Positions 10,367-56,470 are shown, numbered from the stretch's first letter. The stretch: DNA of 64,000 nucleotides from Candidatus Woesearchaeota archaeon (GCA_002867475.1 PKTL01000043.1:16192-80191); one strand, 5' to 3'. Numbers and translations are program-made. Notes: generated by a model not told the origin, from the letters alone.

Positions 10367-10376
10367 ATGTCCAGTG
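10367..10376. promoter_or_regulatory. Copy of the recurring intergenic motif ATGTCCAGTG (context GTGAAAATGTCCAGTGAAAAAA)
   Basis: Seen directly in the sequence. Related copies at 28077, 40144, 40161, 56411 and 56461; all are intergenic. Confidence 0.5.
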
Positions 10377-10443
10377 AAAAAAAGATGTAAAAATAGATCA
10401 TCTCATTAAATTTTAAAAAAAATTAAACATGAACCTAAAAGAA

Positions 10444-10839
10444 TTATTTTTTCTTTTTTCTTTTAGCAATTTCTTGCTGTTCTGTCAATAGTTGAATCTT
10501 GTTTGGGTCTTTCTTGATCTCTTTAACTATGCTTGCTGGACCTATTATTGTTAATCCTTGTCTGTTTCCTAGAAGTTTGCTTGCGAGTGCAAGCTTCATT
10601 TTTTCCATGCCTGTAGCGTTTGATCCTTGTGGGTCTACTACTGCTAGTTCTATTCCTTTGAATTCGTCATCGATCTCTTCCATGGTTGTCTTGATAAGTT
10701 CTGCTTCTTCTTCTTTTTCAAGTCTTCCTTCTAGAAGAACTATCTTATTTTCCTTTGCAACCTTGAGTAGTTTTTTTATCCTGCCTATACTGCTTAGGCC
10801 TTCGATTGCAGCGTATGGTACGAATTCAAGTGTTAACAT
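10444..10839 (-). CDS. Conserved archaeal protein (DUF2073-like), partner of the adjacent GTPase
   Basis: 131 aa; conserved synteny with a small GTPase in archaea (recalled). GGAGG RBS 6-11 nt upstream of the start. Confidence 0.35.
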   Translation of the reverse strand: MLTLEFVPYAAIEGLSSIGRIKKLLKVAKENKIVLLEGRLEKEEEAELIKTTMEEIDDEFKGIELAVVDPQGSNATGMEKMKLALASKLLGNRQGLTIIGPASIVKEIKKDPNKIQLLTEQQEIAKRKKKK

Positions 10840-10903
10840 GCTAAAAAACCTCCTGTTTTTGGCATGCTAAAAATTTTGATTTTTATCATATTAATATCCT
10901 CTT

Positions 10904-11533
10904 TTAAGCAGATTTTACCAGTTCCTCATAAAAGTCTTCAATGTTTGTGCCTTGTTTTGCACTTATTCCGACTACTTTGTATTGAGGGAATGCTTCCTCC
11001 ACTTTTTTTATGTCAGCTTTTTTCAGGTCTACCTTGTTTGCAAGTATTATTACTGGTATATCTCTTGCTTGAAGGTTTCCTATGATTGTTATATTTACTT
11101 GACTGTATGGATCTTTTGTTGCGTCTAATACAACCACCACTACTTCCATGTCATCTAGCCATTTTATTGAATCGATTATTCCTTTTGTCGCTTCTTTTGC
11201 TCTAGCTTTTGCTTCGTCTTCTTTCATTCCAGCTTTTAAGAAATCTTCATAATCGATTCTTGTTGCGATTCCAGGGGTATCTACTAAGTTAAATGTGAGT
11301 TCTTTTCCTTTAGATTTTATTACTACTTGCTCTTTTACTTGGATCTCTCTTGTTTCATGTGCCATGCTTGATACACTACCCATTTCTTCTCCAAGCCAAT
11401 CTTGACAAATCCTGTTTGCTAAAGTAGTTTTCCCTCCATTTGGAGGCCCATATAGACCTATCTTAAAATTCTTTTTCTTCTTGAAAAACCCACCGAAAAT
11501 TCCGTTCATTACGGATTTTAACTTCTTAATCAT
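10904..11533 (-). CDS. Small GTP-binding protein (MMR_HSR1/Era-like family)
   Basis: G1 GPPNGGKTT, G3 DTPG, G4 NKVD. Confidence 0.7.
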   Translation of the reverse strand: MIKKLKSVMNGIFGGFFKKKKNFKIGLYGPPNGGKTTLANRICQDWLGEEMGSVSSMAHETREIQVKEQVVIKSKGKELTFNLVDTPGIATRIDYEDFLKAGMKEDEAKARAKEATKGIIDSIKWLDDMEVVVVVLDATKDPYSQVNITIIGNLQARDIPVIILANKVDLKKADIKKVEEAFPQYKVVGISAKQGTNIEDFYEELVKSA

Positions 11534-11555
11534 ATGAGAATTAATGGTTAATGAC

Positions 11556-11567
11556 TACTATATAAAG
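11556..11567 (-). promoter_or_regulatory. TATA box/promoter of the GTPase gene (ACTATATAAAG)
   Basis: Same ACTATATAAAG core as the pilin-gene promoters, 26-33 nt upstream of the start at 11533. Confidence 0.4.
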
Positions 11568-11639
11568 ATTACTATTTAATCTTATACAAAAGCGTTTAGA
11601 ATAAATATTTTTATATATTTAATCAAGATTCCTGTTAAG

Positions 11640-11900
11640 ATGAAACCAACAGATTTATACCATTCTGTTATTCAAGTTGATACGTTGATTTCTAGAATGG
11701 ATCAAAAAGAAACAAATAATATTGCAAGACTATTGGAAAAAGGCAATATACAAGATATTTTAGATGTCAATTTGAAACTAAAAGACCTATTTGGAAAATA
11801 TGTTTCACATTATAATGAGGGCGATAGATTAATTCAAGTTATAAGTGAAACACATTATAGTGCCGCTATGAATGCTCTTGATAGAAAAATGTATCAATAA
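11640..11900 (+). CDS. Hypothetical protein, 86 aa
   Basis: ORF only; no recognisable motif. Confidence 0.3.
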   Translation: MKPTDLYHSVIQVDTLISRMDQKETNNIARLLEKGNIQDILDVNLKLKDLFGKYVSHYNEGDRLIQVISETHYSAAMNALDRKMYQ

Positions 11901-11976
11901 TTCTTATTGGAATATTTTTGTCAATAGTTTATTTAAAAGAAATATACATTCTTGTCTAGAAACGTGAAAACGGGGC

Positions 11977-12318
11977 GTGATAAATATGAATGCAGGATAT
12001 GATTTTGATACACAAAGCGATAGAGATTTTGGAAGAATTCTTAGTCTATTAAGAAAAGGTGAAACTTTTAATACCACATTACAAGATGCTAATTTTTTGA
12101 TTGGCGAACTTGAAGAACTTGTTTCCGTAGTGCCTTTAGAAAACAAGACTCAATTATATCAAGTGAATGTTACATTTAAAGAATATGAAACTTTACTTAC
12201 AAGTTATGAAACTGTGAAAGATATGGAAATAAGAGCAGTATATGGAGCAGGAAATATGAGAAAAGATCCTGATTTTACTAGATGGTCTGCTGTTGATGTC
12301 CCTAAATTATATGATTAA
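11977..12318 (+). CDS. Hypothetical protein (~110 aa; ATG at 11986 more likely than GTG at 11977)
   Basis: ORF only. Confidence 0.3.
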   Translation: MINMNAGYDFDTQSDRDFGRILSLLRKGETFNTTLQDANFLIGELEELVSVVPLENKTQLYQVNVTFKEYETLLTSYETVKDMEIRAVYGAGNMRKDPDFTRWSAVDVPKLYD

Positions 12319-12676
12319 GATGAAAATGGAAAACTCAAATTTGATAGATAAAATAAATGGATTAGAAGTTGATGAGTTAGAGATTTTGGCTTCGGCATTT
12401 GTCAAAGGAAAACATTTTGACCTAGAACTTGCTAGAGTTAAGATAAGAAAACCTCATAATGGTTCTAAAGATTATGCTAGTGTTCTTGAAAATCTTTTGC
12501 CAGATAATATAAGAAGAACTGATGATGGAAAAGAAAATTATAGGATGATTATGAAATCAGATGTATATCTTGGACTAAGAAATCTATTGATTAATGAATA
12601 TGATAAGCATCCAGATTCTCACTTATTAGGACTTCCAGATATGAATAAAGATTATGAAAGATATTATAATGCTTGA
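12293..12676 (+). CDS. Hypothetical protein (~120 aa)
   Basis: ORF only; start ambiguous (several in-frame Met). Confidence 0.3.
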   Translation: MMSLNYMIKMKMENSNLIDKINGLEVDELEILASAFVKGKHFDLELARVKIRKPHNGSKDYASVLENLLPDNIRRTDDGKENYRMIMKSDVYLGLRNLLINEYDKHPDSHLLGLPDMNKDYERYYNA

Positions 12677-13060
12677 TCAGATTATTATCTGTAGTTTCAA
12701 TTCTTGTAATTGATTTCTTTCTTTTAGATTTTGTATATCTTCTTTAGTAAGTAACGAACGTGCATAAGCCATAGAATGTTCTATATTGAACATATCACTA
12801 AAAACCAATTTTTCTAAAGACTTTTGAGTTTCATCTTTTAAATTTATAGCACGAATATATTCTTCTCCACTTATAGGTATTCGTTTATATGAATTAATGA
12901 TTTGTTCATCAGGTAAATATCCTATTTGAACAGCGTAAGCTTGGTCTTTATGTACAAGATATGCTTTTCTGTGTCTTAAATTATTAATATGAGAATCTGG
13001 AGCATCTTCTATTGTAAATAGTTCATCTTCTACAAACATAGAATTTATTGTTTCAATCAT
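12677..13060 (-). CDS. Hypothetical protein, 127 aa
   Basis: ORF only. Confidence 0.3.
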   Translation of the reverse strand: MIETINSMFVEDELFTIEDAPDSHINNLRHRKAYLVHKDQAYAVQIGYLPDEQIINSYKRIPISGEEYIRAINLKDETQKSLEKLVFSDMFNIEHSMAYARSLLTKEDIQNLKERNQLQELKLQIII

Positions 13061-13094
13061 GACTCTTTTAGAATAATAACAATTATTTAAACTT

Positions 13095-14024
13095 TTAGAA
13101 TTTTTTCATCAATTCTAATTTTAAGGTTTCACCAATTGGTTCGCCTTTGAAGTAATCGACCTTTGCACAAATGCTTATCTTGTCTGCTAGTGCTCTTGCT
13201 GCTTTTCCTTTATCTTTTCTTGGTACGCCTGTAACTATTGGATGGTTTATTATGAAACCATGCTTTGGAGGTTTTGAACCGCTTTTTATATGCCTAAAAA
13301 GCGCTGTTTCTGCACCTAGAAGCTGTATTGTTCCTGCAGGCATTAAGCTTAGTTGTCTAACGCTTCCTGCAAAGGTTATTAGTTTTGAACCTATCATTGT
13401 GCCTACTATTTCATAAACGTTTGGTGCATGTCGTTTCATTAAGGTTTCAAGATATTTCTCTTTAGCTTTCTTTTCATCGAATAATTCTTTTACTTGTTTT
13501 GCTAATTTTATTATCTCTTCAACATCAGATTTTTTTAGGCTTGCACCCATTGATTCAGTTATTTTTAATTCTGAAAAAAGTTCATCTTTTGTTTTTATTG
13601 ATACCGCTTTACTAAATCCTTCATTGTCACCTATCTTGTTTGATATTTCTGGCGCGTATAAACTGTGCCATTCCCTTAATCTTTTTGAAAGCGTATTATT
13701 TACTTTTTCTAAGTCTTCAATGAGCCCTACTGTTTGTATTATTAGATTATCATCACTTACTGATTCTCTAATATTTTTCTTTGTATTTTTAGTGTCAAAA
13801 TCTTTGAATTTTTTAGCATCATTTTTTAATATTTGAAGTATCTTTTTCAATTGGTCATTCGTTGGTTCTTCACCAGAAAACTTTTTCTTTATTGAATCAA
13901 TTCCTTTAGTTACTAATTCTTCCTGTTCTTTTTTAGAGAATTCTCTTGAATCTATCAAGAATAGTTTCCCATTTTTTTCTTCGAACAAATATTCTCCTAT
14001 TATATTAACAAAACTTATTTTCAT
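13095..14024 (-). CDS. nop5: Nop5 (Nop56/58 homolog), C/D box sRNP scaffold, short form
   Basis: C-terminal Nop domain LLGAETALFRHIKSGSKPPKHGFIINHPIV plus a coiled-coil middle region. Confidence 0.75.
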   Translation of the reverse strand: MKISFVNIIGEYLFEEKNGKLFLIDSREFSKKEQEELVTKGIDSIKKKFSGEEPTNDQLKKILQILKNDAKKFKDFDTKNTKKNIRESVSDDNLIIQTVGLIEDLEKVNNTLSKRLREWHSLYAPEISNKIGDNEGFSKAVSIKTKDELFSELKITESMGASLKKSDVEEIIKLAKQVKELFDEKKAKEKYLETLMKRHAPNVYEIVGTMIGSKLITFAGSVRQLSLMPAGTIQLLGAETALFRHIKSGSKPPKHGFIINHPIVTGVPRKDKGKAARALADKISICAKVDYFKGEPIGETLKLELMKKF

Positions 14025-14211
14025 AAAGAGAAGTTTATTGACACTATTTATAAAACTTTACACTGAAGTTTTATGCCCAAATCTGCCCAGATTCAAAAAA
14101 AGAATTTGTTTGTATAAAAGTAACTGTGTCACTTTTAAAAAGCATTATGAAATTTGCTTGCGATTTTTATTTACGGCAATGTTTATAAACAACCCAGAAT
14201 TTCTATTAGGT

Positions 14212-15327
14212 ATGTCAGATAAGCTAAGAATGAGTGCTAAGGATAGGCATAAGTTGAAGAGTTTCTTAAAAGAGATTTCTCAAATTAAAGGTAGAGGTAC
14301 CGAACTTGTTAGCGTTTACGTTCCTGCAGGTTATGATTTGAATAAGATTGTTGCTCACTTGCAAGATGAACAAGGTACTGCAACCAATATCAAAAGTAAG
14401 CAGACTAGAGATAATGTTATAGCTTCACTTGAAAAAATGATCCAGCACTTGAAGCTTTATGATAAGACTCCCGAGAATGGACTTGTTGTCTTTGCAGCAA
14501 ACACTGCTGAGCGTGAAGGTCAACAAGATTACAAAGCTTGGAGCTATATCCCTGTAATCCCTATGAATCAAAGGCTTTACAGATGCGATAAGGAGTTTGT
14601 TCTTGAACCATTAGAAGAGCTTGCTAGTGATGAGAGCATCTATGGTCTTGTTGTTATGGATAAAAGAGAAGGTAACATCGCTCTGTTAAAAGGTAAAACC
14701 ATTGTTCCACTTACGAATGCTCAAAGCGCTGTTCCTGGAAAGCATAAGACTGGTGGTCAGTCTGCTCAAAGGTTTGAAAGATTAAGAGATCTTGCTAGTT
14801 TAGAGTTCTATAAAAGAATTGCAGATCACATGCAGACTAATTTTTTGGATATGATAACTGAATTGAAAGGTATTATTATTGGGGGCCCTGGTCATTCCAA
14901 ATATGATTTTGCTGAAGGAAATGTTATCAATGATCAATTGAAAAGAAAAATTATTGGTATTAAAGACCTTAGTTATACTGGAGAGTTTGGACTTCAGGAA
15001 TTAGTTGAGAAAAGTGAGGATTTGCTTGCTTCTGAAGAGATCATGGGTGAGAAAAGGATTATGGGTGAATTCTTTGAAAAACTATCAAAAAATGATAAGA
15101 TTGTTGCTTATGGAGTAAAAGAAGTTAAAGCTGCTCTTGAGATGGGCGCTGTTGAAAAGCTTCTTCTTAGTGAAACTTTGGATGATTCAACAATCGAAGA
15201 ATTTGAGAAGATCAATGAGCAATATGGTGGTGAAACACATTTTATAAGTACTGAGACTAGAGAAGGTGTTCAATTGAAAGATCTTGGTAAAATGGGTGCA
15301 ATCCTCAGATACCCTTTACAAGGATAA
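14212..15327 (+). CDS. prf1: Peptide chain release factor aRF1
   Basis: TATNIKS (NIKS motif) and KHKTGGQSAQRFERLR (GGQ motif). Start chosen at ATG 14212 (MSDKLRMS...) rather than the upstream alternative start. Confidence 0.9.
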   Translation: MSDKLRMSAKDRHKLKSFLKEISQIKGRGTELVSVYVPAGYDLNKIVAHLQDEQGTATNIKSKQTRDNVIASLEKMIQHLKLYDKTPENGLVVFAANTAEREGQQDYKAWSYIPVIPMNQRLYRCDKEFVLEPLEELASDESIYGLVVMDKREGNIALLKGKTIVPLTNAQSAVPGKHKTGGQSAQRFERLRDLASLEFYKRIADHMQTNFLDMITELKGIIIGGPGHSKYDFAEGNVINDQLKRKIIGIKDLSYTGEFGLQELVEKSEDLLASEEIMGEKRIMGEFFEKLSKNDKIVAYGVKEVKAALEMGAVEKLLLSETLDDSTIEEFEKINEQYGGETHFISTETREGVQLKDLGKMGAILRYPLQG

Positions 15328-15358
15328 CATTATAAATAATCTTTATCAAACAATTCTT

Positions 15359-16024
15359 ATGAGTGTTGATTTTTTATGTAAAGCATATGTTGGGCTTCTT
15401 GAAAGAGAACCAATCTATGAATTGAAAGTTCGTTATAGTAAAGCTTTTGAACCTTACAATGCTAATGTCAAATATACACGACGCGAAATGGTCTTTTCCC
15501 TTAGCCATCTTTGGAAAGATACTAGCGTTGAGATAAAGATTGGACTTATACAGTTCTTGCTTTCTAAAGTGTTCAAGACTAAACGTAAGACTTTGAACAT
15601 GGATTTATATGAGATATTTTTGAAAAATGTTCATATTGGTATTGAAAAGGATAAGATTGATCCTTTGTTGAAGTCTGTTTTCGATAAGATGAATGATATG
15701 TATTTTGCTGGAATGCTTGACATGCCTAACCTTGTTTGGGGTGGAAGAAATCTCTCAAAACTGGGGTCATACACATATAGTTCTGATACTATCATGATTA
15801 GTGACGTTTTAAGAAAGGATTCTATGTTACTTGAATATGTCATGTATCATGAGATGCTCCATAAGAAGCTTAAATTTAACCGTAGTAAGACTGGAACAAA
15901 AACTTTCCATCACACAAAAGAGTTCAAAGAGCTCGAAGCTAAGTTCTATGATAAAGATGCTGAACAGAAACTAAAGATTTTCTTACGAAAACAAAAGCTG
16001 AAAAGAGCTTTCTTCCTCGATTAA
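15359..16024 (+). CDS. Zinc metallopeptidase-like protein (DUF45/YgjP/SprT-like, HExxH)
   Basis: EYVMYHEMLHKKLKFNRSKTGTKTFHHTKEFKELEAKF fits the HExxH...H...F pattern of the DUF45 family. Confidence 0.5.
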   Translation: MSVDFLCKAYVGLLEREPIYELKVRYSKAFEPYNANVKYTRREMVFSLSHLWKDTSVEIKIGLIQFLLSKVFKTKRKTLNMDLYEIFLKNVHIGIEKDKIDPLLKSVFDKMNDMYFAGMLDMPNLVWGGRNLSKLGSYTYSSDTIMISDVLRKDSMLLEYVMYHEMLHKKLKFNRSKTGTKTFHHTKEFKELEAKFYDKDAEQKLKIFLRKQKLKRAFFLD

Positions 16025-16093
16025 GTTGAATACCACTAATAAGTGACAAAAAAGGAAACATTTATAAAGGAAAGAGGGTTTCGAATTAGTAAT

Positions 16094-17143
16094 ATGAGCA
16101 AATTAGAAGCAAGATTAGCCTCCATCGAAATTGGGCTTGAAAGTGAAGATTATAATAGAGTGATTGAGGATCTTAACAAAATAAAAAAAGAAAATCCAGA
16201 TTATCCACTTGAAAAAGAAGGTTATTTAATAGATTTTTATATGGGTCAAGCAATTTTTAGAAAAGAAATTAGTTCTAAAACCAAACCTAAACAACTAGAA
16301 AAAGCAAGACAACATCTCAAAAAATCTTTAGAATCAATTTCAACTTTTGCAGACGGACATTTAATGCAAGCTTATAATTCAATGGTATTAGGACAAATCC
16401 TAAATTCTGAATTTTATAGATTAGAATCCAAATATGAATTTCAAGAAGCATTAAAAATAAATCCTTTTCTTCAAAATGAAGTATCTCCAAAAATTTCAGC
16501 ACTTAATCAAAGTATTAAACAAGATTATGATATAACAATTTGTGCCAATAATGAAGAAGTGATTTTAGAATTGATGATAGAATTTGAAAAATTTCCTTGG
16601 ATAAAAATTGAATATGGAGATATAACTACTCAAAAAGCAGATGCGATTGTGAGTCCAGCTAATAGTTTCGGTTTTATGGATGGAGGATTAGATCATACAT
16701 TGAGTGAATATTTTGGTTGGGATCTTCAAGAAAAACTTCAAAAAATTATTAAAGAAAAACATCATGGAGAATTATTGGTTGGAAAAGCAGAAATACTCGA
16801 AACTGGAAATGAAGAAGTTCCATATCTAATTTCAGCACCGACAATGAGAGTTCCGATGGAAATTAAAGATAGTATGAACCCCTATTTAGCTACTCGTGCA
16901 GTATTTATTGCACTTGAAAAATTCAATTCTGAAGAAAAAAGAATAAATAGTGTTTTAATACCTTCTATGGGAACAGGCATAGGTAAAGTTCCTTATGATA
17001 TCTCAGCAAGACAAATGAGAGCTGCATATGAAGATATACTTCTTAATCAAAATAAGTTCCCTCAAGATTTTGCAGATGCTCAACATAAAAATAAAGTATT
17101 ATCAATGGACCACTTTTATCAATTATATAAAGGACAATATTAA
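16094..17143 (+). CDS. Macro domain (ADP-ribose binding/processing) protein with N-terminal TPR-like helical domain
   Basis: YGDITTQKADAIVSPANSFGFMDGGLDHTLSEYFG ... SAPTMRV ... IPSMGTGIGKVPYD: canonical macro-domain motifs in the C-terminal half. Confidence 0.7.
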   Translation: MSKLEARLASIEIGLESEDYNRVIEDLNKIKKENPDYPLEKEGYLIDFYMGQAIFRKEISSKTKPKQLEKARQHLKKSLESISTFADGHLMQAYNSMVLGQILNSEFYRLESKYEFQEALKINPFLQNEVSPKISALNQSIKQDYDITICANNEEVILELMIEFEKFPWIKIEYGDITTQKADAIVSPANSFGFMDGGLDHTLSEYFGWDLQEKLQKIIKEKHHGELLVGKAEILETGNEEVPYLISAPTMRVPMEIKDSMNPYLATRAVFIALEKFNSEEKRINSVLIPSMGTGIGKVPYDISARQMRAAYEDILLNQNKFPQDFADAQHKNKVLSMDHFYQLYKGQY

Positions 17144-18003
17144 GCAACCAAATCAAATACTGCTTCTTCTAAACATTCTGGGTGAAAATAATGCTCTTTA
17201 CCAAAATTTCCCGTCCCTCTTATAATTGCTTTTTTACCATGAGATTCAACTTTTTTATTATCAGTTAAAAGTGAAGAATGTCTGTTTAACCACTTTTCTG
17301 TTTCACCCATTTCAAAACTATCAAGTAAATCAACATCAAAAGGTTTAAAATCTTCTAAAGATCTTTTAGAAAAAGAAACTTTTACTATATGGAGTTTAGG
17401 AATTTCAATACCTTCATTTTTACATCTGTCTGTAATTAATTTTTTATATTTTCTTGCATGTTTGATATCATCAAATGAATATAGACCAGGACCAAAATGA
17501 GCTTTAGTAGGAGTTATTGGCCAAGTACCTTTACCATGAACAATCCTATTTACACCTTCTTTATCTTGAACTGTATAAAAACTTATAAGCTTAATTCCTA
17601 ATTCTTTTACTTGTTTATGAGTCATCCCTCTTATTAATCTTATATCTTGAATATCTTGTTTTAACAAACTATTCAATTCAAAAAGAATTTTTTCTCCTAA
17701 TTCAAGTTTATCTTTAGGAACATTTTGATTTAAATTTTTTAATTTCATTATCAAATCCAAATCATCTTTCAATTGAGCAGCAAGAAAATTTATTTTATTG
17801 TACAAATTATTATTACCTTTAACTAACCTATGTAACTTTCTAATTGTCCTAATCAATTGCAAATCTAATTCCTCAAGATCTTTAAGACCTTTTAATTTAG
17901 AATCCTTCCAAATCCATTTTTCAGATAAAAATTTTGTTGATTTTCCTAAATCAGAAATGAGTTCATCTAATTCTTCTAATAATTTTTTTCTAAACAAACC
18001 CAT
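17140..18003 (-). CDS. Hypothetical protein, N-terminal coiled coil; C-terminal domain with possible ART-like R/S/E residues
   Basis: ORF convergent with and overlapping the end of the macro gene. Residues NRIVHG ... VSFS ... GETE have spacing reminiscent of R-S-E ADP-ribosyltransferases (weak). Confidence 0.3.
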   Translation of the reverse strand: MGLFRKKLLEELDELISDLGKSTKFLSEKWIWKDSKLKGLKDLEELDLQLIRTIRKLHRLVKGNNNLYNKINFLAAQLKDDLDLIMKLKNLNQNVPKDKLELGEKILFELNSLLKQDIQDIRLIRGMTHKQVKELGIKLISFYTVQDKEGVNRIVHGKGTWPITPTKAHFGPGLYSFDDIKHARKYKKLITDRCKNEGIEIPKLHIVKVSFSKRSLEDFKPFDVDLLDSFEMGETEKWLNRHSSLLTDNKKVESHGKKAIIRGTGNFGKEHYFHPECLEEAVFDLVA

Positions 18004-18159
18004 AAAATATTTATTTAAAATTAAATATTTAAAACTATCGAAAATAAAAATCTAAAACCTCCTGTTTTACCAAATATAACAAGCATGGAAAAGTTTATAA
18101 ATAAACCTCGTCCCCCAAAAGAATATTAATTATTAATATATATTTAATTGGTGATATTC

Positions 18160-18561
18160 ATGGAAGGAGAAATCAAACTTACAAGCATCGGACACTTAAA
18201 GAAAGGCAACTATGTTGTTATAGATGGTGTTGCATGCGTCGTTAAAGATACACAAACTTCAAGACCTGGAAAGCACGGTCACGCTAAGGTTAGGCTTTCA
18301 GCTACAGGAATTCTTGATGGAAAATTAAAAGTTATTGTTATGCCAGGTCATGATAATATTGAAACACCAGTTATTGACAAAAGAACTGCTCAAGTATTAT
18401 CCATTGCAGGAAAAATGGCAAACATCATGGATGGCGAAACATATGAAACTTTCGACATTGAAATTCCTGAAGAACTAAAGGATGAAGTTGTTGAAGGTGT
18501 TTCAGTACTTTACTGGGTAATCCTAAAAGACAAAGTAATAAAGCAGGTTAAGAACGATTAA
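18160..18561 (+). CDS. eif5a: Translation initiation factor 5A (aIF-5A)
   Basis: Hypusine loop TSRPGKHGHAKVRL. Confidence 0.85.
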   Translation: MEGEIKLTSIGHLKKGNYVVIDGVACVVKDTQTSRPGKHGHAKVRLSATGILDGKLKVIVMPGHDNIETPVIDKRTAQVLSIAGKMANIMDGETYETFDIEIPEELKDEVVEGVSVLYWVILKDKVIKQVKND

Positions 18562-18572
18562 GAGGATTTAAA

Positions 18573-18734
18573 ATGGCAAAATTCGCAGAAGCTGACGCAA
18601 GACTTTTCAAAAACATTTTTGTATGCAGAAAATGCAAGAACAAGGTTAGGGCACCTAACATGAAAGTTCTAGCTGGAAAAGTTAAATGCAGAACATGCAA
18701 TGGGAAAGCTTTACGGACTGTTCGTAAAAAATGA
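18573..18734 (+). CDS. rpl40e: 50S ribosomal protein L40e (53 aa; absent from the ORF track)
   Basis: Translation MAKFAEADARLFKNIFVCRKCKNKVRAPNMKVLAGKVKCRTCNGKALRTVRKK, a C4 zinc ribbon typical of L40e. AAGAGGA RBS upstream. Confidence 0.7.
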   Translation: MAKFAEADARLFKNIFVCRKCKNKVRAPNMKVLAGKVKCRTCNGKALRTVRKK

Positions 18735-19921
18735 TCATTGATGGATTTACTAGCGTGCTTATCAAATATTGGCACGTATTTTTATTCTATATTTCACTTA
18801 TAATCTTATTATATCTTAACAGGAATAAATTTGAGATGCAAGGAAGGTTTGTTTTCTTGTACAAGACCAAATTTGGTTTGAAATTGATGGATTCTATTGC
18901 TGAAAAATATAATAGAACCGTGAAATTTCTTGGAACTATTGGAATATATGTAGGCTACATCGGTTTCTTGTTCATAACTTATGCTTTGCTCATGACATTT
19001 TATAATGTTTTGAAAAAACCTGATACTGTTGCTATAAGTCCAGTACTTCCTGGAGTTCCAATTGCTGGTACAAATCTTATATTTCCTTTGATTACAGGTT
19101 GGATAGCGCTTTTAATAATAATAATTGTTCATGAGTTTTCCCATGGAGTTGTTGCTAGAGCTTACAAGCAAAAGATCCTTTCAAGTGGTATCGCTTTTTT
19201 TGGTCCTATAATGGGTGCTTTTGTTGAACCTGATGAGAAACAGATATCTAAGCAAAATAAAAAAGTTCAGAATTCTATCTATGCAGCTGGACCTTTTTCA
19301 AATATTTTGTTGACTTTGGTTGCAGCATTATTGCTTTTTTTTGTTGTGAGTCCTATCTCTGCATCTATCAGCAGTGTTGATGGTCTTGATATAGGTCCCA
19401 TACCTGATCTTCCTGCTGAAGAAGCTGGACTTATTGAAAATTCGTTACTTACCAAGATAAATGATGTTGATATAAGAGAAAATGTTTCTTTGTTTTATGA
19501 GGTAACTAGTGACCTTTCACCAGGTGATGTTGTCAAGCTTGAAACAAGTAGTGGAACTTATGAATTTGCTACAACTTCAAATCCTGCTAATGAATCCATG
19601 GCTTATATGGGAATCTACATTCATGATATTGTAAGATCTGGGAACACTTTTGAATTGAACATATTATATATTATTTTGACTTGGTTTTCAAGCCTTCTTT
19701 TCTGGGTTGGTTTCATCAGCATAAATATCGGCCTTATCAATCTTTACCCGATCTATATTACCGATGGTGCTAGGATGCTAAAGACTCTTCTTGATGACAA
19801 GATGGAAGACAAGAAAAGAGCTGAGACTTTCTGGATCAAGATAAATAATTTCGCAGTTCTTATACTTCTTGGTATAATATTTTTGCAGGTTGGAAATTTC
19901 TTTCTTGGTTTTTTTGCATAA
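18731..19921 (+). CDS. Site-2 protease (M50 family membrane metalloprotease) with PDZ-like domain
   Basis: HEFSHG (HExxH) in a TM helix and an NLYPIYITDG (LDG-type) motif. Confidence 0.75.
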   Translation: MIIDGFTSVLIKYWHVFLFYISLIILLYLNRNKFEMQGRFVFLYKTKFGLKLMDSIAEKYNRTVKFLGTIGIYVGYIGFLFITYALLMTFYNVLKKPDTVAISPVLPGVPIAGTNLIFPLITGWIALLIIIIVHEFSHGVVARAYKQKILSSGIAFFGPIMGAFVEPDEKQISKQNKKVQNSIYAAGPFSNILLTLVAALLLFFVVSPISASISSVDGLDIGPIPDLPAEEAGLIENSLLTKINDVDIRENVSLFYEVTSDLSPGDVVKLETSSGTYEFATTSNPANESMAYMGIYIHDIVRSGNTFELNILYIILTWFSSLLFWVGFISINIGLINLYPIYITDGARMLKTLLDDKMEDKKRAETFWIKINNFAVLILLGIIFLQVGNFFLGFFA

Positions 19922-19952
19922 GTTTAAATAAAAAAATAGCTTTTTGTTTAAT

Positions 19953-20621
19953 ATGGTTGAAAACGCAATACTGAAAAAAACCTTAAAGATCGAATTTTGG
20001 ATAAGTATTTTTGTAAGGCTTAGTATATTAGGGGTTTTGATTCCTTCAATCATTGAGAAGCAGTACATGCTTGTTTTCGCAGCTAGTTCAATGCTCATAA
20101 TCTCATTTGTTCCTTCAATTATAGGAAAAAGATATCAGTTGGTCTTACCACCTGAATTTGAGATTATTGTGAGCTTGTTTTTATATGCCACTTTTATACT
20201 TGGTGAGATGAAAAGCTATTACTTTACGTATTGGTGGTGGGATATCCTTCTTCATAGCTTTAGCGCATTCATCCTTGGTTTGATTGGCTTTGTGATATTA
20301 TACACATTCCATTACGTTGAGAAAATTAATTTAAGCCCTATAATTGCTGCAATATTTAGTTTCAATTTTGCTGTAACCCTTGGAGTTATGTGGGAAATAT
20401 TTGAGTTTGCAGCTGATCAGTTCTTAGGATTGAACATGAAAAAAAGCGGTATAATGGATACAATGACTGACTTGATAGTTGATTCTATTGGTGCTTTGAT
20501 TGGTGCAGTCATGGGTTACTTCTATCTTAAAGGAGGAGACTCATTAATAATAAAAAGAATTGTTGAGAAATTTGTTAGACAAAATTTCAATAGGAAAAGA
20601 AAGATAACTTTTAGTCTTTAA
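19953..20621 (+). CDS. Polytopic membrane protein of unknown function
   Basis: Multiple hydrophobic helices (WWDILLHSFSAF ... WEIFEF). Confidence 0.4.
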   Translation: MVENAILKKTLKIEFWISIFVRLSILGVLIPSIIEKQYMLVFAASSMLIISFVPSIIGKRYQLVLPPEFEIIVSLFLYATFILGEMKSYYFTYWWWDILLHSFSAFILGLIGFVILYTFHYVEKINLSPIIAAIFSFNFAVTLGVMWEIFEFAADQFLGLNMKKSGIMDTMTDLIVDSIGALIGAVMGYFYLKGGDSLIIKRIVEKFVRQNFNRKRKITFSL

Positions 20622-20643
20622 TTAAAAAATATATAATAAATAA

Positions 20644-21183
20644 TTATTTAGGTTTGTATTTGCTTTTTTCAGCTTTATCGCTGATTATTGCAGAATTGCC
20701 TGTTGGGTCTTCGATTGTTATTGTTATTGAGTCGTTTCCCCACATAATGTTTTGGATTTTCTTAAGCATGTTTTTTGCTTTTTTTCTTTCGTCCTTATCT
20801 TCAGAATTGTCCCTTGCAGTTTCCAATTGATGCTTTACCCTATTGAAGATCCCTTCAATATTTGTTACGTATCCATTGCTTGCTGGGCCTGGCTCGATTG
20901 TCATTATCCTTGGGATCTTTATTGTTGCATCCCCAGATTTCACAACTCTTACTTTCATATCTTCTTCAGAATCTATCTTGAAAGTAAATTTTACAGGTTC
21001 ATCACTGCTTTCAGTTTCCACATCTGCTTTATGATATTTACAGTTTGAACAATTCATGCTAAATAAATACACCATTCCAAAATATGGAACTTCTCTTTCA
21101 TCTTCCATAAGGGTAAGATTATTAGTACCGCACATCGGACAAGGTTGCCCTTCAAGCATTGCTGGACCTGTTTCTTCTGCCAT
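20644..21183 (-). CDS. ZPR1-type zinc finger protein
   Basis: CPMCG ... VPYFG ... CSNCKY arrangement. Confidence 0.6.
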   Translation of the reverse strand: MAEETGPAMLEGQPCPMCGTNNLTLMEDEREVPYFGMVYLFSMNCSNCKYHKADVETESSDEPVKFTFKIDSEEDMKVRVVKSGDATIKIPRIMTIEPGPASNGYVTNIEGIFNRVKHQLETARDNSEDKDERKKAKNMLKKIQNIMWGNDSITITIEDPTGNSAIISDKAEKSKYKPK

Positions 21184-21273
21184 GTAATCTTTTAAGAATT
21201 AAGTGTTTATAAGGATTTGTTTTTTAAAAAATATATACTTGTAAATCGATATAAAAAAATATTAAAAAAAAAA

Positions 21274-21480
21274 TTATTCACTGTCTTCTTCATCAGCTTC
21301 TTCGCCGTCATCATATTCAGCTAGGATCTGTTGAAGTTTATCAGCATATTCTTCTTCAGTAAAAACATTTTTCTCGATTAATAACTCAATCAATGCGTCT
21401 ACTTTGTCATGTGCACCGTAAACCATTTCTTCAACTGTAAGAAGCTCTTCTTCTGTAACGTTTTGTTCTTCGTTTGTCAT
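21274..21480 (-). CDS. Small acidic hypothetical protein, 68 aa
   Basis: ORF only. Confidence 0.3.
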   Translation of the reverse strand: MTNEEQNVTEEELLTVEEMVYGAHDKVDALIELLIEKNVFTEEEYADKLQQILAEYDDGEEADEEDSE

Positions 21481-21641
21481 GTGATATCACCCTCCGTTTT
21501 GGATTTATTTTAGGATTGAGACCTTGTTTTTAAATCTTCGCATTAAAACAGGCAACAAGTAATTGATGCCGATTAGAGTAATGAAGTTAATTATAAATCT
21601 TACTCTAAAAATTTATATACTGGATATACATCCTTCTCGTT

Positions 21642-22208
21642 ATGGACATTTTAACAAAAGAGGAATTCATGCTTCAAAAAGAAGCATTCATGGCTGACTT
21701 AGAAGATGGAGAACTATTCATCTACCCAACCGACACAATATATGGCATTGGTTGTGATGCTACTAATGAGATAGCTGTATATAACCTTAGAAATATTAAG
21801 AAGATTCCAACAAGGCCTGTGTCGATTATTGCTCCTTCAAAAGAGTGGATTAAAGAACATTTTGAAGTTAATGACAAGGCTTCTGAATGGATCGATAAGC
21901 TTCCAGGACCTTACACTTTAGTTCTGAAATGCAAGAATGGTTGCATGCCTAGCAATATAAGCGATACAGGTAGTATTGGTGTTCGAATTCCTGATCATTG
22001 GATAAGCTCATTTGTTTCTGAATTTGGAAAACCTATTGTTACTACTAGTGCTAACATAACAGGTAAAAGTTTCATGACAAACATTGATGATTTAGATACT
22101 AGTATAAAGAAAAAAACCTTGTTCTTCATTGATGAAGGAGATATTCAAGGCAAGCCTAGCGATATCATTTTCTTGGATAAAAATAAAGTTGAAATAAAAG
22201 AAAGATAG
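21642..22208 (+). CDS. tsaC: L-threonylcarbamoyladenylate synthase (TsaC/YrdC/Sua5 family)
   Basis: IYPTDTIYGIGCDA motif. Confidence 0.8.
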   Translation: MDILTKEEFMLQKEAFMADLEDGELFIYPTDTIYGIGCDATNEIAVYNLRNIKKIPTRPVSIIAPSKEWIKEHFEVNDKASEWIDKLPGPYTLVLKCKNGCMPSNISDTGSIGVRIPDHWISSFVSEFGKPIVTTSANITGKSFMTNIDDLDTSIKKKTLFFIDEGDIQGKPSDIIFLDKNKVEIKER

Positions 22209-28034: not shown

Positions 28035-28076
28035 AGATTATTATAAACTCTTTTTATTTAAATACTCTATGTGGCT

Positions 28077-28086
28077 ATGTCCAGTG
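28077..28086. promoter_or_regulatory. Copy of the ATGTCCAGTG motif in the divergent intergenic region
   Basis: Seen directly in the sequence. Confidence 0.45.
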
Positions 28087-39204: not shown

Positions 39205-40101
39205 ATCTAATTTATTTAACATATTGAAAGTTTCTTTATCAAATCTAGAAAAAGCAAACCACTTCTTTCCAAGATCTTTAAGTGATGCTCCAAAATGAAA
39301 CACTTCTTTTTCATCTATGATTAAAAACCTATCATGTGAATCTTTAAATTCCTTAATTTCTATATTTGGATTTTGAGAATTATATTTTTTTAGGTCAAGA
39401 ATTAATTTCTTTGTTAAATTTTTTGTTAAAATAGTTGCTTTAACATTTTTATCTCTTTTACTTAAAATAGTTAAAACAGAATCATCAATGTAATTATCTA
39501 TTAATATTATTGATTTATTAGCACTTCTAATAATATCAGATACTAATTTATATGCATCAAAAATTTCTCCATCATAAAATATTCATTTATTTAAATTAAT
39601 ATTATTATTTTCTAATTTACTAAATATTTCCTTAAAATTTTTATCATGAATCAATTGCTTTGATTCAATATGATCTAATCTATTATTAATATTAAAATTA
39701 TTTGATATGATTTTTCTTAATTCTACAAAAGTATCTATTATTTGAAGACTTACAGTTATTGCAACTTTACTTCTTAAAACAGAAGAAAGCATAGCAACAC
39801 CTTGTTCTGTAAAAACATAAGGAAGAGAACCACCCAACTGCTGGTTAGAAGGTATCGCAAAATGCGATACCTTTTCTTTTGTGATCACAGATTGTGACCT
39901 TAAATTTTCAATTTCTTCTAAAGTTAATTGAAACATAAATCTTGAAGGAAACCTTTCAATATTTCTTTTTACTTGTTCTCTAATACGGATGGGTTTTACT
40001 TGATATAATTCTGCTAAATCCTTATCAAACATTACTTGTTTTCCCCTTATTTTATAAATTTTATTTTTTATATTATTCTCTAATATGATTTCATTAATCA
40101 T
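39199..40101 (-). pseudogene. ORF6N-domain (KilA-N superfamily) gene interrupted by an in-frame TGA at 39583-39585
   Basis: N-terminal part KIRGKQVMFDKDLAELYQVKPIRIREQVKRNIERFPSRFMFQLT ... GGSLPYVFTEQGVAMLSSVLRS is an ORF6N domain. After the TGA the same frame stays open for 127 codons with no start codon (IFYDGEIFDAYKL ... HDRFLIIDEKEVFHFGASLKDLGKKWFAFS), resembling the usual C-terminal region of this family. Confidence 0.55.
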
Positions 40102-40143
40102 ATGATTTTACAAGAAACCTTGTTTAAAAGCCTCACTTGAGAA

Positions 40144-40170
40144 TGTCCACTGATATTTTTTGTCCAGTGG
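40144..40170. promoter_or_regulatory. Two copies of the TGTCCA(C/G)TG motif forming an 8-bp inverted repeat (GTCCACTG ... CAGTGGAC)
   Basis: GAATGTCCACTGATATTTTTTGTCCAGTGGAC; a further partial copy TCCAGTG at 40202-40208. Confidence 0.5.
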
Positions 40171-40216
40171 ACGTCTGAATTATTTCATAATTCATGAAAG
40201 TTCCAGTGTCTAGTGA

Positions 40217-44120: not shown

Positions 44121-44122
44121 CT

Positions 44123-47897: not shown

Positions 47898-47971
47898 AAT
47901 TATTTTAAAGTAAATACATCTATTTAAAGATATATGATAATTTTATAAATAAGAATCTCTTATCATCCTAC

Positions 47972-48730: not shown

Positions 48731-48780
48731 AAAGATTTTTATACCTCTAAATAAATTAAACAATTAGAGGTGGTATTTTA

Positions 48781-49008: not shown

Positions 49009-49052
49009 AATTTTTCATAAGATTTTTATATGAATCATATTCAATTAATGTT

Positions 49053-49487: not shown

Positions 49488-49644
49488 GTATGAAAATTTG
49501 TATGCAAACTTTATACTAACTGTAAGTCAGTCTAAATTTGTAAAGTTGCTTACGTAAGTTTTATACAAAAAGAGTCTAATAGGACTCTAGGCATAAAATT
49601 TACAGAAGGCAAATTTTATAAATAAATCTTTATTTATTTGAACT

Positions 49645-50937: not shown

Positions 50938-50946
50938 GTGGATTAA

Positions 50947-52743: not shown

Positions 52744-52745
52744 AA

Positions 52746-53869: not shown

Positions 53870-53875
53870 ATTAAT

Positions 53876-54412
53876 TTGATTGATGAAATATTAGGTCTTT
53901 TGTATCTGCTTATCCCTGCTTATTTTGCAAATATGGCTCCAGTATTTTTCAAAAGATTGGATTTCTTGAATTACCCTATTGATTTTGGTAAAAAGATCAG
54001 AAAGAAAAGAATATTTGGTAAAAATAAGACTTTTAGAGGTCTTTTTTTTGGAATGATTCTAGCAATGTTAGTCTTTTACATCCAAAAGATCTTTTTTCTA
54101 GAAGGATTTGTAAGCTTTTCATTGATAGATTACAGCCTTTATAGTGTTTGGTTTGGTGCTGTTATAGGACTAGTCACTATATTGGGTGATGCTATTGAAA
54201 GCTTTTTCAAAAGACAGCTTGGGAAAAAACCTGGGAAGCCTTGGGTTCCTTTTGATCAATTAGATTTCGTGATCACTAATTTCATATTTTTTGCATTCTT
54301 TATAGATATCAGCATCTTGTCTTATTTGATCGCTGCAATAATAATAACATTATGTGATATGATAATACAATACACAGGTTATAAGCTTAAACTAAAAGAG
54401 GATTTCTTATGA
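53876..54412 (+). CDS. carS: CDP-archaeol synthase
   Basis: LIPAYFAN ... KTFRG ... FKRQLG ... PFDQLD motifs; TTG start. Confidence 0.7.
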   Translation: MIDEILGLLYLLIPAYFANMAPVFFKRLDFLNYPIDFGKKIRKKRIFGKNKTFRGLFFGMILAMLVFYIQKIFFLEGFVSFSLIDYSLYSVWFGAVIGLVTILGDAIESFFKRQLGKKPGKPWVPFDQLDFVITNFIFFAFFIDISILSYLIAAIIITLCDMIIQYTGYKLKLKEDFL

Positions 54413-55050
54413 AAAAAGCTATAATCACAGGAGCCTCAAGTGGATTAGGATTAGAAATTGGGAATTTACTAAAAAATGATTCTTTTGAGGTTATTAATAT
54501 TTCTAGAAAAGATTCACCTTTTAATGACATTAAATGTGATCTTAGCTTAGATACAATGATTGGTGATGTAATTGAAAAAATCAAAAAAGAACATGATAAA
54601 TTTGATGTGATAATTCTTAATTCTGGTATAATGCCTTTAGCAAAAATAGGTCAAACAAATTTTGATATTGATAATCTTTTTAAGATAAATGTTACTGGTG
54701 CAATAAAGATCATTGATGGTTTATTAGATCTGATTAAGAAAAATGGAGCAGACATAATAATAGTTGGTTCTACTGCTGCAAAACAAGGGTATGATGAACA
54801 TGGAATATACTGTGCCACAAAACATGCACTTGATGGTTACATCAAATCCTTGCAAGCAGAACTGAAAGAAGAAAAGGTCAGAGTTATTGGTTTTCATCCT
54901 GGAGGATTCAATTCTAATCTTAGAGGAGGTATAGTAAAAGAAGGTTATATGGATCCTAGGGAATTAGCAAAATTGATAATCCAATTGATCAATCTTCCTA
55001 AAGTTATGGAAGTTTCAGACATTGTTATTACACGTAAAAAAAATTATTAA
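54409..55050 (+). CDS. Short-chain dehydrogenase/reductase
   Basis: TGASSGLG Rossmann motif and YCATKHAL (YxxxK). Confidence 0.75.
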   Translation: MKKAIITGASSGLGLEIGNLLKNDSFEVINISRKDSPFNDIKCDLSLDTMIGDVIEKIKKEHDKFDVIILNSGIMPLAKIGQTNFDIDNLFKINVTGAIKIIDGLLDLIKKNGADIIIVGSTAAKQGYDEHGIYCATKHALDGYIKSLQAELKEEKVRVIGFHPGGFNSNLRGGIVKEGYMDPRELAKLIIQLINLPKVMEVSDIVITRKKNY

Positions 55051-55051
55051 A

Positions 55052-56101
55052 TTATAATTTTATCTTGAAAAAATTTCTCTTATTTTCAAAAAGTGTCTTG
55101 AACTTGAAACTTTTATAGAATAAAAATATCATCCCGATTAGGCCTATCGTTACGTCCCTAGATCTTATAAGGAAACTTAATGCGTAAGCTTTTCCTACAT
55201 CTATCTTTAAAAAATTAAATATGCTTGCTTGTGATATCTCTAAAACTCCAAGGGCTGCAGGGATAGGAATAAGATATGCAAGACCTACAACAGTTATTAT
55301 AAGGAAAAGTTCATAAAAACCTGCATCATACCCTAACATTAGAAGAGCTACCTTAAATTCTGCAAACATGAGCAACCAAAGTATCGCACTTATAATCACA
55401 GATACCTTAAATTCAAATGTATGCTTATTATAGAAATTATATATGTTATCTCTTATAGTTTTAAGCTCCCTTACATAGTTCTTCAAATATTTCAAATCTT
55501 TTATCCTATCAAAAAATATGTTCAAAAAAACTCCTTTCTTTATCATCAGATAATATGCTGTAACTATCAAAAATAGCAATAAGGATATTATGAAAAATAA
55601 AAACTTATTATGTATAGTTGTTAAAAGCAATATTAAGCTTCCAGTAACTGCAAAAAAGGAGTTCATACCCATCTCCATACTTTTATCAATCAATACTGTT
55701 GATATTCCTTTTGGAAAAGGCATATCATAACGTTTTAACATCAATGCCCTTATAGGTTCACCTCCAACGTGCGCTGTCGGAGTGAAATAATTCAGACTAT
55801 AACCTATCGTCCTATAAACCCATAGTTTTGTAAATGGTATTTTTTGACCATGAGCAGAAATTATTATCTTCCACCTCAACACAAGAAATAACTGAATCAA
55901 CAAACTTATACCCAGATATGCTGAAAACAATATCAATGATGTATATATAAAGTTCTGAAAAATAGTTATTAATCCTTTATTTGTATATAGGAGAATAACT
56001 GTAAATAAGCCAATTAGTACAGATAAGAGTATCAACCATTTTTGAGTTTTAAATCGTTCAGCATATGCCAATTTTGACTTCTTTTTTGCAAAAAGTTCCA
56101 T
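55052..56101 (-). CDS. UPF0104/MprF-type (lysylphosphatidylglycerol synthase TM region, flippase-like) membrane protein
   Basis: Polytopic; GYSLNYFTPTAHVGGEPIRALML motif. Confidence 0.55.
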   Translation of the reverse strand: MELFAKKKSKLAYAERFKTQKWLILLSVLIGLFTVILLYTNKGLITIFQNFIYTSLILFSAYLGISLLIQLFLVLRWKIIISAHGQKIPFTKLWVYRTIGYSLNYFTPTAHVGGEPIRALMLKRYDMPFPKGISTVLIDKSMEMGMNSFFAVTGSLILLLTTIHNKFLFFIISLLLFLIVTAYYLMIKKGVFLNIFFDRIKDLKYLKNYVRELKTIRDNIYNFYNKHTFEFKVSVIISAILWLLMFAEFKVALLMLGYDAGFYELFLIITVVGLAYLIPIPAALGVLEISQASIFNFLKIDVGKAYALSFLIRSRDVTIGLIGMIFLFYKSFKFKTLFENKRNFFKIKL

Positions 56102-56124
56102 TATACTTGTTTAGGTCCAATCAT

Positions 56125-56364
56125 TTATAAAATATTTGCTTGTGATTTAAATTCAAATTCCAGATTTAGATTTAAATTTTCATTATATAATCTTAATGCT
56201 AAATGATCAAAACTTTTTTCTACATCTTTCAATATTATGAACTCTTGGTCTAATAAGTCAAGCAATCTTCTTTTCACATCATATTTTAGCCATAAGACTT
56301 CTCTTATGTATTGTTTTTCTTCTAGATATCTGTTTGCAATCTTTATTATCTTCAAACATATCAC
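56125..56364 (-). CDS. Hypothetical protein, 79 aa
   Basis: ORF only. Confidence 0.3.
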   Translation of the reverse strand: MICLKIIKIANRYLEEKQYIREVLWLKYDVKRRLLDLLDQEFIILKDVEKSFDHLALRLYNENLNLNLEFEFKSQANIL

Positions 56365-56410
56365 CTCTATAAAATATTAGAACATATTAGTTTAAAAGAG
56401 TGATTTGAGA

Positions 56411-56470
56411 ATGTCCAGTGAGAAAATAGTTAGTAATATTATAATATATAATATTAAGGATTGTCCAGTG
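56411..56470. promoter_or_regulatory. Two copies of the ATGTCCAGTG motif (GAGAATGTCCAGTGAGAAAA and GGATTGTCCAGTGAATCAG) in a divergent intergenic region
   Basis: Seen directly at 56411-56420 and 56461-56470. Confidence 0.5.

Follow-up and report, generated by a model that had tools for sequence, protein, structure and literature searches.

The SOS box is a palindrome, CTGT-N8-ACAG, bound by a dimer of LexA, and the G1/S elements of yeast, MCB (ACGCGT) and SCB, are bound by APSES factors, which derive from KilA-N. Among archaeal upstream activators, Ptr2 of Methanocaldococcus and TFB-RF1 of Pyrococcus use sites at approximately -40 to -60 that abut the B recognition element (BRE) and the TATA box, from which they can help recruit TBP or TFB; the BRE itself measures 6-7 bp. 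An archaeal core promoter has an A/T-rich TATA box of 8 bp some 22-25 nt before the transcription start, directly preceded by a purine-rich BRE. To our knowledge, archaeal DNA-damage and cell-cycle regulons have been characterized in a few model species only. In Sulfolobus, the promoter element ANTTTC is the binding site of Orc1-2, a regulator of damage-response genes and of its own gene (PMC6061795). Origin recognition boxes (ORBs) follow the euryarchaeal consensus GTTCCAGTGGAAAC (PMC1868953) and are described as TTTCCACTGGAA in Pyrococcus (PMC1904270). Here, we describe an element found in a 64,000-nucleotide stretch of DNA from a Candidatus Woesearchaeota archaeon (PKTL01000043.1:16192-80191; hereafter, the window). 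Its core is the 9-mer TGTCCAGTG, which reads CACTGGACA(T) on the minus strand. The element is conserved, oriented, linked to promoters, and specific to a subset of genes. We consider it likely that the 9-mer is the core of a cis-regulatory module of approximately 30 bp that operates in archaeal promoters of Woesearchaeota (DPANN) and serves a replication- and repair-linked regulon together with selfish genes. Full-text searches on the motif string and on DPANN regulons returned nothing relevant, and we came across no publication about how DPANN archaea regulate their genes.

The element and its promoter register

The window has a G+C content of approximately 30%. The exact 9-mer occurs at 10368, 28078, 40161, 56412, and 56462, always in the same orientation; these five copies compare with 0.25 expected, and five were reached in none of 100 shuffles of the window. 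A previous sequence-only reading had reported seven intergenic copies of a GC-rich motif recurring beyond chance. The excess is real and all copies lie between open reading frames (ORFs), none inside coding sequence; one-mismatch variants are found at 40144 (CAGTGGACA) and 40207 (CACTAGACA). The 13-mer given in the title of that reading has a single exact match, at 56409 (with up to two mismatches, five matches against 1.34 expected in the window). Because the 13-mer is exact just once, we treat the 9-10-mer as the real unit. Two repeats noted at the time were recovered: the 8-bp inverted repeat (40145-40152 and 40165-40172) and the direct repeat of copies 50 nt apart (56412 and 56462).

The motif had been read on the strand opposite to the meaningful one: its layout appears on the minus strand. 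There, four copies share the arrangement CA[C/G]TGGACAT, 13 nt, a TATA box (WTTTAAA), 21-26 nt, and a start codon, and the pattern CASTGGACA-N14-WTTTAAA is found four times in the window against 0.02 expected. A weight matrix built from related sites was run over the window and 20 shuffles. It scored 28-45 at these four sites and nowhere above 8 in the rest of the window, which equals the top of the shuffles. The copies are distributed over 46 kb, each at a promoter; similarity among the four stops within approximately 30 bp, and no endonuclease gene adjoins them. Sequence variants of the motif include CACTGGACA, CACTAGACA, and CACAGGACA.

We searched for the element in a collection of archaea and bacteria with one genome per species, using the 20-base pattern CASTGGACATNNNCANNTNANNNNTTTAAA. 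This yielded 67 loci, approximately 63 of which are labelled Woesearchaeota, Nanoarchaeota, plain "archaeon", or "uncultured Methanosarcinales" metagenome-assembled genomes (MAGs). We expect approximately nine chance matches, a figure that we estimated rather than computed, and two loci (L007 and L036) look like such matches. The perfect consensus was present at 31 metagenome loci, and a scan of 2.9 million viral contigs gave no match. Orientation toward the downstream gene was constant across loci. Positions that the pattern left free are conserved among the 67 loci (C15 in 49, G16 in 44, T22 in 60, and A23 in 56), as are the central C-A-C-G-T-G-A and the TA ahead of TTTAAA, and CACTGGA often stands directly upstream. 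Because positions not fixed by the search are conserved, we define the consensus as (CACTGGA)CACTGGACAT-nnn-CACGTGA-nn-TATTTAAA. The 9-mer occurs 97 times in 528 kb of related-locus DNA; 29 copies fall outside the full pattern, and nearly all of these are tandem or distal partners of a promoter site or show the same layout with a variant TATA box. No Woesearchaeota sequence in this analysis comes from a cultured isolate.

The register of the element is fixed. The TATA box, TATTTAAA or TTTTAAAY, stands 13-14 nt past the core, and the same BRE/TATA pattern is seen in 104 ordinary promoters of the same DNA. These ordinary promoters show an A-rich BRE and TTTAWA only, with nothing at -24 to -7, which indicates that the 19 bp from the core to CACGTG are specific to the element. 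The CACGTGA box overlaps the BRE position. The distance from the TATA box to the first start codon peaks at 21-23 nt (22 of 85 sites), and a second group lies at 45-50 nt, behind GGTGAT. An extra core in the same orientation was found within 120 nt at 41 of 90 non-redundant sites, 7 bp upstream in 23 cases and 15-21 bp upstream in 10; offsets of 40-86 bp also occur. Inverted copies number only two among the 90 sites.

This register has practical uses. One Bro-N paralogue has its called start (L073:10001) within the promoter element (ATGAAGTTTATAAAG), and its real start is an ATG 22 nt past the TATA box, so the motif can serve to correct gene starts. It can also flag mis-binned or mislabelled contigs. 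Two contigs of "bacterial" MAGs, L011 (labelled Armatimonadota) and L066 (labelled Desantisbacteria), carry typical Woesearchaeal-type sequence with motif promoters, and many "uncultured Methanosarcinales" loci (e.g., L002, L016, L018, and L019) carry Woesearchaeal motif promoters as well. Several of the oddly labelled contigs also hold LAGLIDADG genes with the shared leader described below. These labels probably reflect mis-binning or misclassification.

Genes behind the element

We looked up homologues of selected genes by protein rather than by motif. The element was conserved before orthologues with diverged flanks, the pattern of a regulon site, for MCM in four of five lineages and for the Bro-N gene in all three. 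At MCM, it lies past the conserved TBP gene, which is directly upstream of MCM in all five MCM loci, and conservation in the upstream alignment is limited to CCACTGGACAT and the TATA box; two further MCM genes with the element were found by motif. The Bro-N protein encoded at one of the window sites (site B, below) has more than 8000 homologues, the best of which are 75-82% identical and, where labelled, come from Woesearchaeota or Nanoarchaeota. Upstream of its gene, each lineage shows the element in the same place, either intact or with one mismatch: L073 carries two tandem Bro-N copies with a full element before each, whereas the sequence at the equivalent position before the TATA box is CACTAGACAT in L069 (core variant CACTAGACA) and CACAGGACAA in L072. 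The neighbours of the gene differ between these genomes. A short Orc1/Cdc6 paralogue of approximately 355 aa, widespread in Woesearchaeota (2093 homologues), has the element in L008 and L112.

The MCM loci belong to a conserved Woesearchaeal replication cluster (L105-L108 and L113, approximately 9200-21800) that comprises, in order, TBP, MCM, an OB-fold gene, SpoIIM, an eIF5-like gene, PolD DP2 and DP1, and Orc1. Upstream of orc1, the cluster shows ORBs of the TTTCCAnnGGAAA type and an AT-rich stretch, and this region is likely a replication origin. The OB-fold gene directly follows MCM in L105-L107; in the two other loci, an HNH_repeat gene, of a type associated with homing endonucleases, lies between them (L108:12262-13212 and L113:12195-13526). 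The L108 gene is preceded by its own motif promoter, and no motif core was found upstream of the L113 gene. These HNH_repeat genes have the appearance of mobile cassettes, and at least one of them brings the promoter with it.

Pfam scans of two sets of downstream proteins, one of 68 and one of 26, together with individual checks, gave a broader view of the genes behind the motif. LAGLIDADG proteins form the largest class (LAGLIDADG_3 in 15 of the 68 and 9 of the 26, in addition to other LAGLIDADG families), and HNH_repeat proteins are found as well. The replication genes are MCM (L002 and L103), the short Orc1/Cdc6 paralogue (L008), and ribonucleotide reductase (L050), and the repair genes encode UvrB (L054), XPD (L026), Hef (L010), Lhr (L024), Cas4-like nucleases (L040 and L058), and NreA (L112). 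DNA modification and restriction are represented by N6_N4 DNA methylases (L033, L052, and L094) and an Mrr-type nuclease domain (L063). Bro-N genes stand behind the element in the window and in L012, L046, L064, L073, and L081, and several downstream genes are toxin-antitoxin components. We estimate roughly that half or more of the proteins encoded downstream act on DNA. In five genomes (L004, L029, L030, L048, and L067), the motif precedes a member of a conserved family of approximately 100 aa (…EKKFSTGxIxATVWKN…RRYxDKxGxW…), which has no match in Pfam, NCBIfam, or the PDB sequences; its pattern may resemble that of PC4-like single-strand DNA binders.

The LAGLIDADG proteins have mostly retained the catalytic acidic residues at both positions, and because these are kept they are probably active, mobile endonucleases. 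Their genes share a leader of approximately 45 nt, AAATCATTTACRYAGTTTCAAC...GGTGATTT-ATG, at 13 loci (L005, L015, L018, L020, L028, L035, L045, L049, L053, L060, L076, L090, and L098), and a second leader-like block in the same orientation lies approximately 70 nt upstream of the motif at LAGLIDADG loci. A hairpin between the 5' end of this leader and the ribosome-binding site, which would mask the latter, was considered and dropped: its predicted energy, -1.4 kcal/mol, is weak, and it shows no covariation. Another conserved leader, GAAAAAGAGAAYACGCAAAACTGCCAAAT, follows the motif promoter before LAGLIDADG, HNH_repeat, and unannotated genes (L003, L027, L051, L052:6714, L061, L068, L074, L082, L092, L108:12066, and L113:4609) and has no match in Rfam.

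In the window itself, the module is predicted to drive four transcription units, all on the minus strand. Site A (10347-10376, score 44.7) reads CACTGGACAT-TTT-CACGTGA-GA-TTTTTAAA, with the core at 10368-10376, the CACGTGA box at 10357-10363, the TATA box at 10347-10354, and an ATG at 10324, 22 nt downstream. The operon behind it (9726-10324) consists of an RHH antitoxin-like gene (10025-10324), whose match to DUF6290 is weak and below the Pfam cut-off, and a YafQ/RelE-family toxin gene (9726-10025). Site B (28057-28086, score 33.0) reads CACTGGACAT-AGC-CACATAG-AG-TATTTAAA, with the core at 28078-28086, the TATA box at 28057-28064, and an ATG at 28034, again 22 nt downstream. It precedes the gene of a Bro-N protein (27166-28034; Bro-N domain E 1e-11). 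Here the gene is broken into two ORFs, of 216 and 73 aa; its homologues (65-82% identical) are single proteins of 270-300 aa, and the split is due to a frameshift, a stop codon, or an assembly error. Some homologues bear the name "DinD" in Joint Genome Institute (JGI) annotation. This is an annotation label only, because the site B protein fails the DinD equivalog test of NCBIfam (NF008573, cut-off 242 bits), with a partial C-terminal match of 23.7 bits.

At site C, the proximal copy (40123-40152, score 33.1) reads CAGTGGACAT-TCT-CAAGTGA-GG-CTTTTAAA, with the core at 40144-40152, the TATA box at 40123-40130, and an ATG at 40101, 21 nt downstream, which starts the gene of an ORF6N-domain protein (39583-40101; E 6e-33). 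A second, distal core CACTGGACA (40161-40169) lies 17 bp further upstream in the same orientation, a spacing that falls in the 15-21-bp class recurring in other genomes, and two degenerate, mutually overlapping copies, CACTAGACA and CACTGGAAC (40200-40215, minus strand), are found directly past the archease stop codon. At site D, the proximal copy (56391-56420, score 28.5) reads CACTGGACAT-TCT-CAAATCA-CT-CTTTTAAA, with the core at 56412-56420 and the TATA box at 56391-56398, followed by GGTGAT and a GTG start at 56364, 26 nt downstream; a distal second core CACTGGACA (56462-56470) lies 50 bp upstream in the same orientation. The genes behind it (55052-56364) encode a 79-aa protein with a weak winged-helix match (56125-56364) and an LPG_synthase_TM membrane protein (55052-56101). 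The element is absent from the housekeeping genes of the window (eRF1, RtcB, archease, and SAM synthetase) and likewise from those of a CDC48-type ATPase and GatD on a matching JGI metagenome contig.

A regulatory reading and its rivals

The element is probably a regulatory one tied to promoters; that its regulon is linked to replication and repair is a claim that we favour with less assurance. Read on the coding strand, the consensus would be followed by the start codon either 21-23 nt on, giving a leaderless transcript, or approximately 45-50 nt on, behind a GGTGAT ribosome-binding site. Transcription would start approximately 22 nt past the TATA box. With the start placed there, the core would span about -52 to -43, and the CACGTGA box would cover the BRE, from about -39 to -33. 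We propose that a candidate sequence-specific DNA-binding protein binds head-to-tail to units of the CAC[T/G][G/T]GA type. The predicted bound units are the core, optional extra upstream cores, and the BRE-overlapping box, and binding at these units would control the assembly of TBP and TFB. The position of the proximal unit, on the BRE and next to a near-perfect TATA box, inclines us slightly toward repression with derepression; activation from the upstream core seems almost as likely.

The putative regulon would comprise two classes of genes. One covers DNA replication and repair and includes MCM, the short Orc1/Cdc6 paralogue, ribonucleotide reductase, UvrB, XPD, Hef, Lhr, the Cas4-like nuclease, NreA, and the Bro-N protein. 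The other would consist of selfish and defence genes that adopted the promoter, namely those of free-standing homing endonucleases (LAGLIDADG and HNH), of toxin-antitoxin pairs, and of DNA methylases or restriction-type functions. Based on gene content only, the signal is likely replication or DNA damage. The case for any particular regulator is circumstantial, and the candidates are Bro-N, ORF6N, the short Orc1 paralogue, small winged-helix proteins, and a TrmB-like gene near the origin cluster. In a bolder version of the proposal, the whole lineage would answer DNA damage or replication stress through this operator, or would run an S-phase programme through it. The system would be an archaeal counterpart of SOS, with one of its own conserved DNA-binding members (Bro-N, ORF6N, or the short Orc1) as master regulator and an operator captured by homing endonucleases and toxin-antitoxin genes. 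We regard this version as rather unlikely; if it were true, selfish genes would be timed to the moments when DNA repair and sister copies are available.

Several points weigh against the regulatory reading. What the signal and the regulator are, and whether regulation is positive or negative, is deduced from sequence, and the gene sets were ascertained on the motif, through exact-pattern searches. Approximately one-third or more of the sites precede homing-endonuclease genes, which are themselves mobile, as the insertions in L108 and L113 illustrate, and part of the spread of the element would therefore reflect mobility and not selection on host regulation. The element is missing at MCM in L107, at the PolD operon and the canonical orc1 in L105-L108, and at the short Orc1 paralogue in two of four lineages (L109/L110 and L111). 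Finally, two of the four units in the window, the winged-helix-like and membrane protein pair and the toxin-antitoxin pair, have no obvious link to DNA metabolism.

In one alternative, the element is a promoter cassette scattered with free-standing homing-endonuclease and other selfish genes, the copies before host genes being leftovers without shared regulation. It accounts for the size of the LAGLIDADG and HNH class, with its common leaders and its probably active and mobile LAGLIDADG endonucleases, and for the unit of motif, leader, and HNH gene inserted in L108 between MCM and its usual follower, with an HNH_repeat gene, although without a motif core upstream, at the equivalent place in L113. 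However, MCM keeps the element in a syntenic place after the TBP gene in most of the lineages chosen by protein and in the two loci found by motif, despite diverged flanks, and the Bro-N gene keeps it in every lineage. Moreover, the window copies are alike over approximately 30 bp only with no endonuclease gene beside them, and viral contigs lack the element, which together make the cassette improbable. A specialized variant of TFB or TBP could instead read the element directly, without a separate regulator, as an alternative promoter class, given that the distance to the TATA box is strictly kept and that the CACGTGA box coincides with the BRE position; the TBP gene directly upstream of MCM in all MCM loci would fit. 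Yet the TATA box is separated from the invariant core, upstream of it, by 13-24 bp, which, judged by the size of the BRE, is outside the reach of the TFB helix-turn-helix, and extra cores at variable offsets (7, 15-21, and 40-86 bp) are typical of a separate DNA-binding protein, so that we rate this possibility marginally below the cassette.

A further idea would give the regulator of our preferred explanation a name: the element would be an ORB-like site, and an Orc1/Cdc6 paralogue would bind it and regulate transcription. The motif lacks the TTCC and GAA blocks that are perfectly conserved in the ORB and mini-ORB of Pyrococcus (PMC1904270), the genuine ORBs upstream of canonical orc1 in L105-L108 differ from it, and the window has no ORB cluster. 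The short paralogue, in which no Cdc6 winged-helix domain was detected, is without the motif in L109/L110 and L111. In favour of the idea, the core has CCACTGGA or CCAGTG in common with the euryarchaeal and Pyrococcus ORBs, the paralogue is widespread and has the motif upstream in L008 and L112, and Sulfolobus Orc1-2 offers a precedent for binding at damage-response promoters (PMC6061795); we find it about as doubtful as the cassette. Far less probable is a recombination or attachment site or the boundary of a genomic island. The sequence-only reading had listed a recombination site and the remnant of a repeat family next to a transcription-factor operator, and it had raised the question whether the copies at 28077 and 40144 bound an rtcB-archease island. 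Same-orientation direct repeats do flank the 28-40-kb segment, and neighbours such as Bro-N, ORF6N, and toxin-antitoxin genes are of the mobile-element type. Nevertheless, each copy is accounted for as the promoter element of the adjacent gene, including the two supposed boundaries, which belong to the minus-strand Bro-N and ORF6N genes, and the element precedes orthologues in other contexts elsewhere, as with the Bro-N gene and its different neighbours. At least five copies share one orientation and inverted ones are rare among the 90 sites. The short extent of similarity leaves nothing like the paired terminal repeats or extended similarity of a mobile-element end, attachment site, or miniature inverted-repeat transposable element in the window, where no inverted ends or target duplications were seen, no integrase was present among the scanned proteins, and no tRNA gene was found. 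From that list, only the operator is supported, in agreement with the fixed register to TATA box and start codon and with conservation before orthologues in many genomes.

Most of the supposed island is taken up by an ORF of 3179 aa on the plus strand (29665-39204), whose sole recorded match is a weak one to Cu-binding_MopE.

Further candidates were set aside. A leaderless mini-ORF (ATGTCCAGTG..., plus strand) does not have conserved peptides, and at two copies the motif is directed into a convergent gene at its 3' end. A small RNA finds no counterpart, as no Rfam family matched in the window at the gathering threshold or downstream of the motif in 20 related loci, and the C box of a C/D-box RNA is absent. 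A viral origin was rejected on the viral-contig scan, and a replication origin at site A on the lack of a nearby orc1 gene and of an ORB cluster. Cumulative GC skew does reach its minimum at approximately 10000-14000, adjoining the gene of OapB (origin-associated protein B; 10444-10839); this turn is probably a switch in gene orientation, because no orc1 gene or ORB cluster is found there. Among possible regulators, an autoregulated Orc1 paralogue was dropped because the motif is upstream in only two of four lineages, the TrmB-family gene near the origin cluster (L105-L107) because it has neither an upstream motif nor a homologue in the window, and a domesticated LAGLIDADG protein because its kind mostly retains the catalytic residues and appears to consist of active endonucleases.

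For an uncultivated lineage, the element amounts to a regulon prediction that is ready to use; it also provides a bait with which to find the regulator and a marker by which co-expression can be followed in metatranscriptomes. A further suggestion is that a host replication and repair promoter has been tapped by free-standing homing endonucleases and toxin-antitoxin genes, which bears on the timing of selfish-element expression.

Relation to known systems

The damage-responsive element of Sulfolobales (ANTTTC, Orc1-2; PMC6061795, PMC5817253) is the closest archaeal precedent for a short conserved promoter element of a damage response. It is required for induction, and its regulon mixes genes for repair and other DNA transactions and includes the gene of the regulator (PMC6061795, PMC5817253). 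The sequences differ, however: the Sulfolobales element is a hexanucleotide and ours is bipartite and approximately 20 bp long, in DPANN rather than Sulfolobales, and ANTTTC is absent from its conserved positions. Homing endonucleases dominate the gene set here, where damage inducibility is suggested by gene content.

The ORB and mini-ORB resemble the element in their CCAGTG or CCACTGGA core, their asymmetry, and their multiple direct copies. In contrast, our element has no TTCC...GAA dyad and no G-string, shows no TTC or GAA at the positions flanking the core, and its copies form no cluster next to orc1 at an AT-rich unwinding region. A search for an ORB cluster in the window gave three matches against 4.0 expected, and no orc1 was present among the proteins scanned near the sites.

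The parallel with SOS and LexA is striking in gene content, which takes in uvrB and ribonucleotide reductase, a helicase of the XPD/DinG type, a protein that annotation calls DinD-like, and a toxin-antitoxin pair of the DinJ/YafQ type. Mobile-element genes have adopted the operator in both cases, and the operator overlaps core promoter elements. Unlike the palindromic SOS box, however, our element is asymmetric, is arranged in direct repeats with inverted copies virtually absent, and belongs to an archaeal TATA/BRE promoter. No LexA turned up, in an analysis that included no search aimed at it. The replication and repair genes under a common upstream element (MCM, Cdc6, and ribonucleotide reductase) are also reminiscent of the yeast MCB and SCB. 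The sequence CACGCGTAAG is found in some copies here (L106), and the putative regulon includes Bro-N and ORF6N proteins, which are related to KilA-N; this is an analogy only, and the usual box here is CACGTG and not ACGCGT.

In position, the element resembles the sites of Ptr2 and TFB-RF1, lying immediately upstream of the BRE and TATA box or abutting them. Those sites are species-specific and occur at few promoters, whereas the present element is near-invariant across a lineage and found at many promoters per genome. It is a familiar kind of object, a promoter-proximal site that defines a regulon, and it is unusual in its near invariance across an uncultivated lineage and in its adoption by homing endonucleases.

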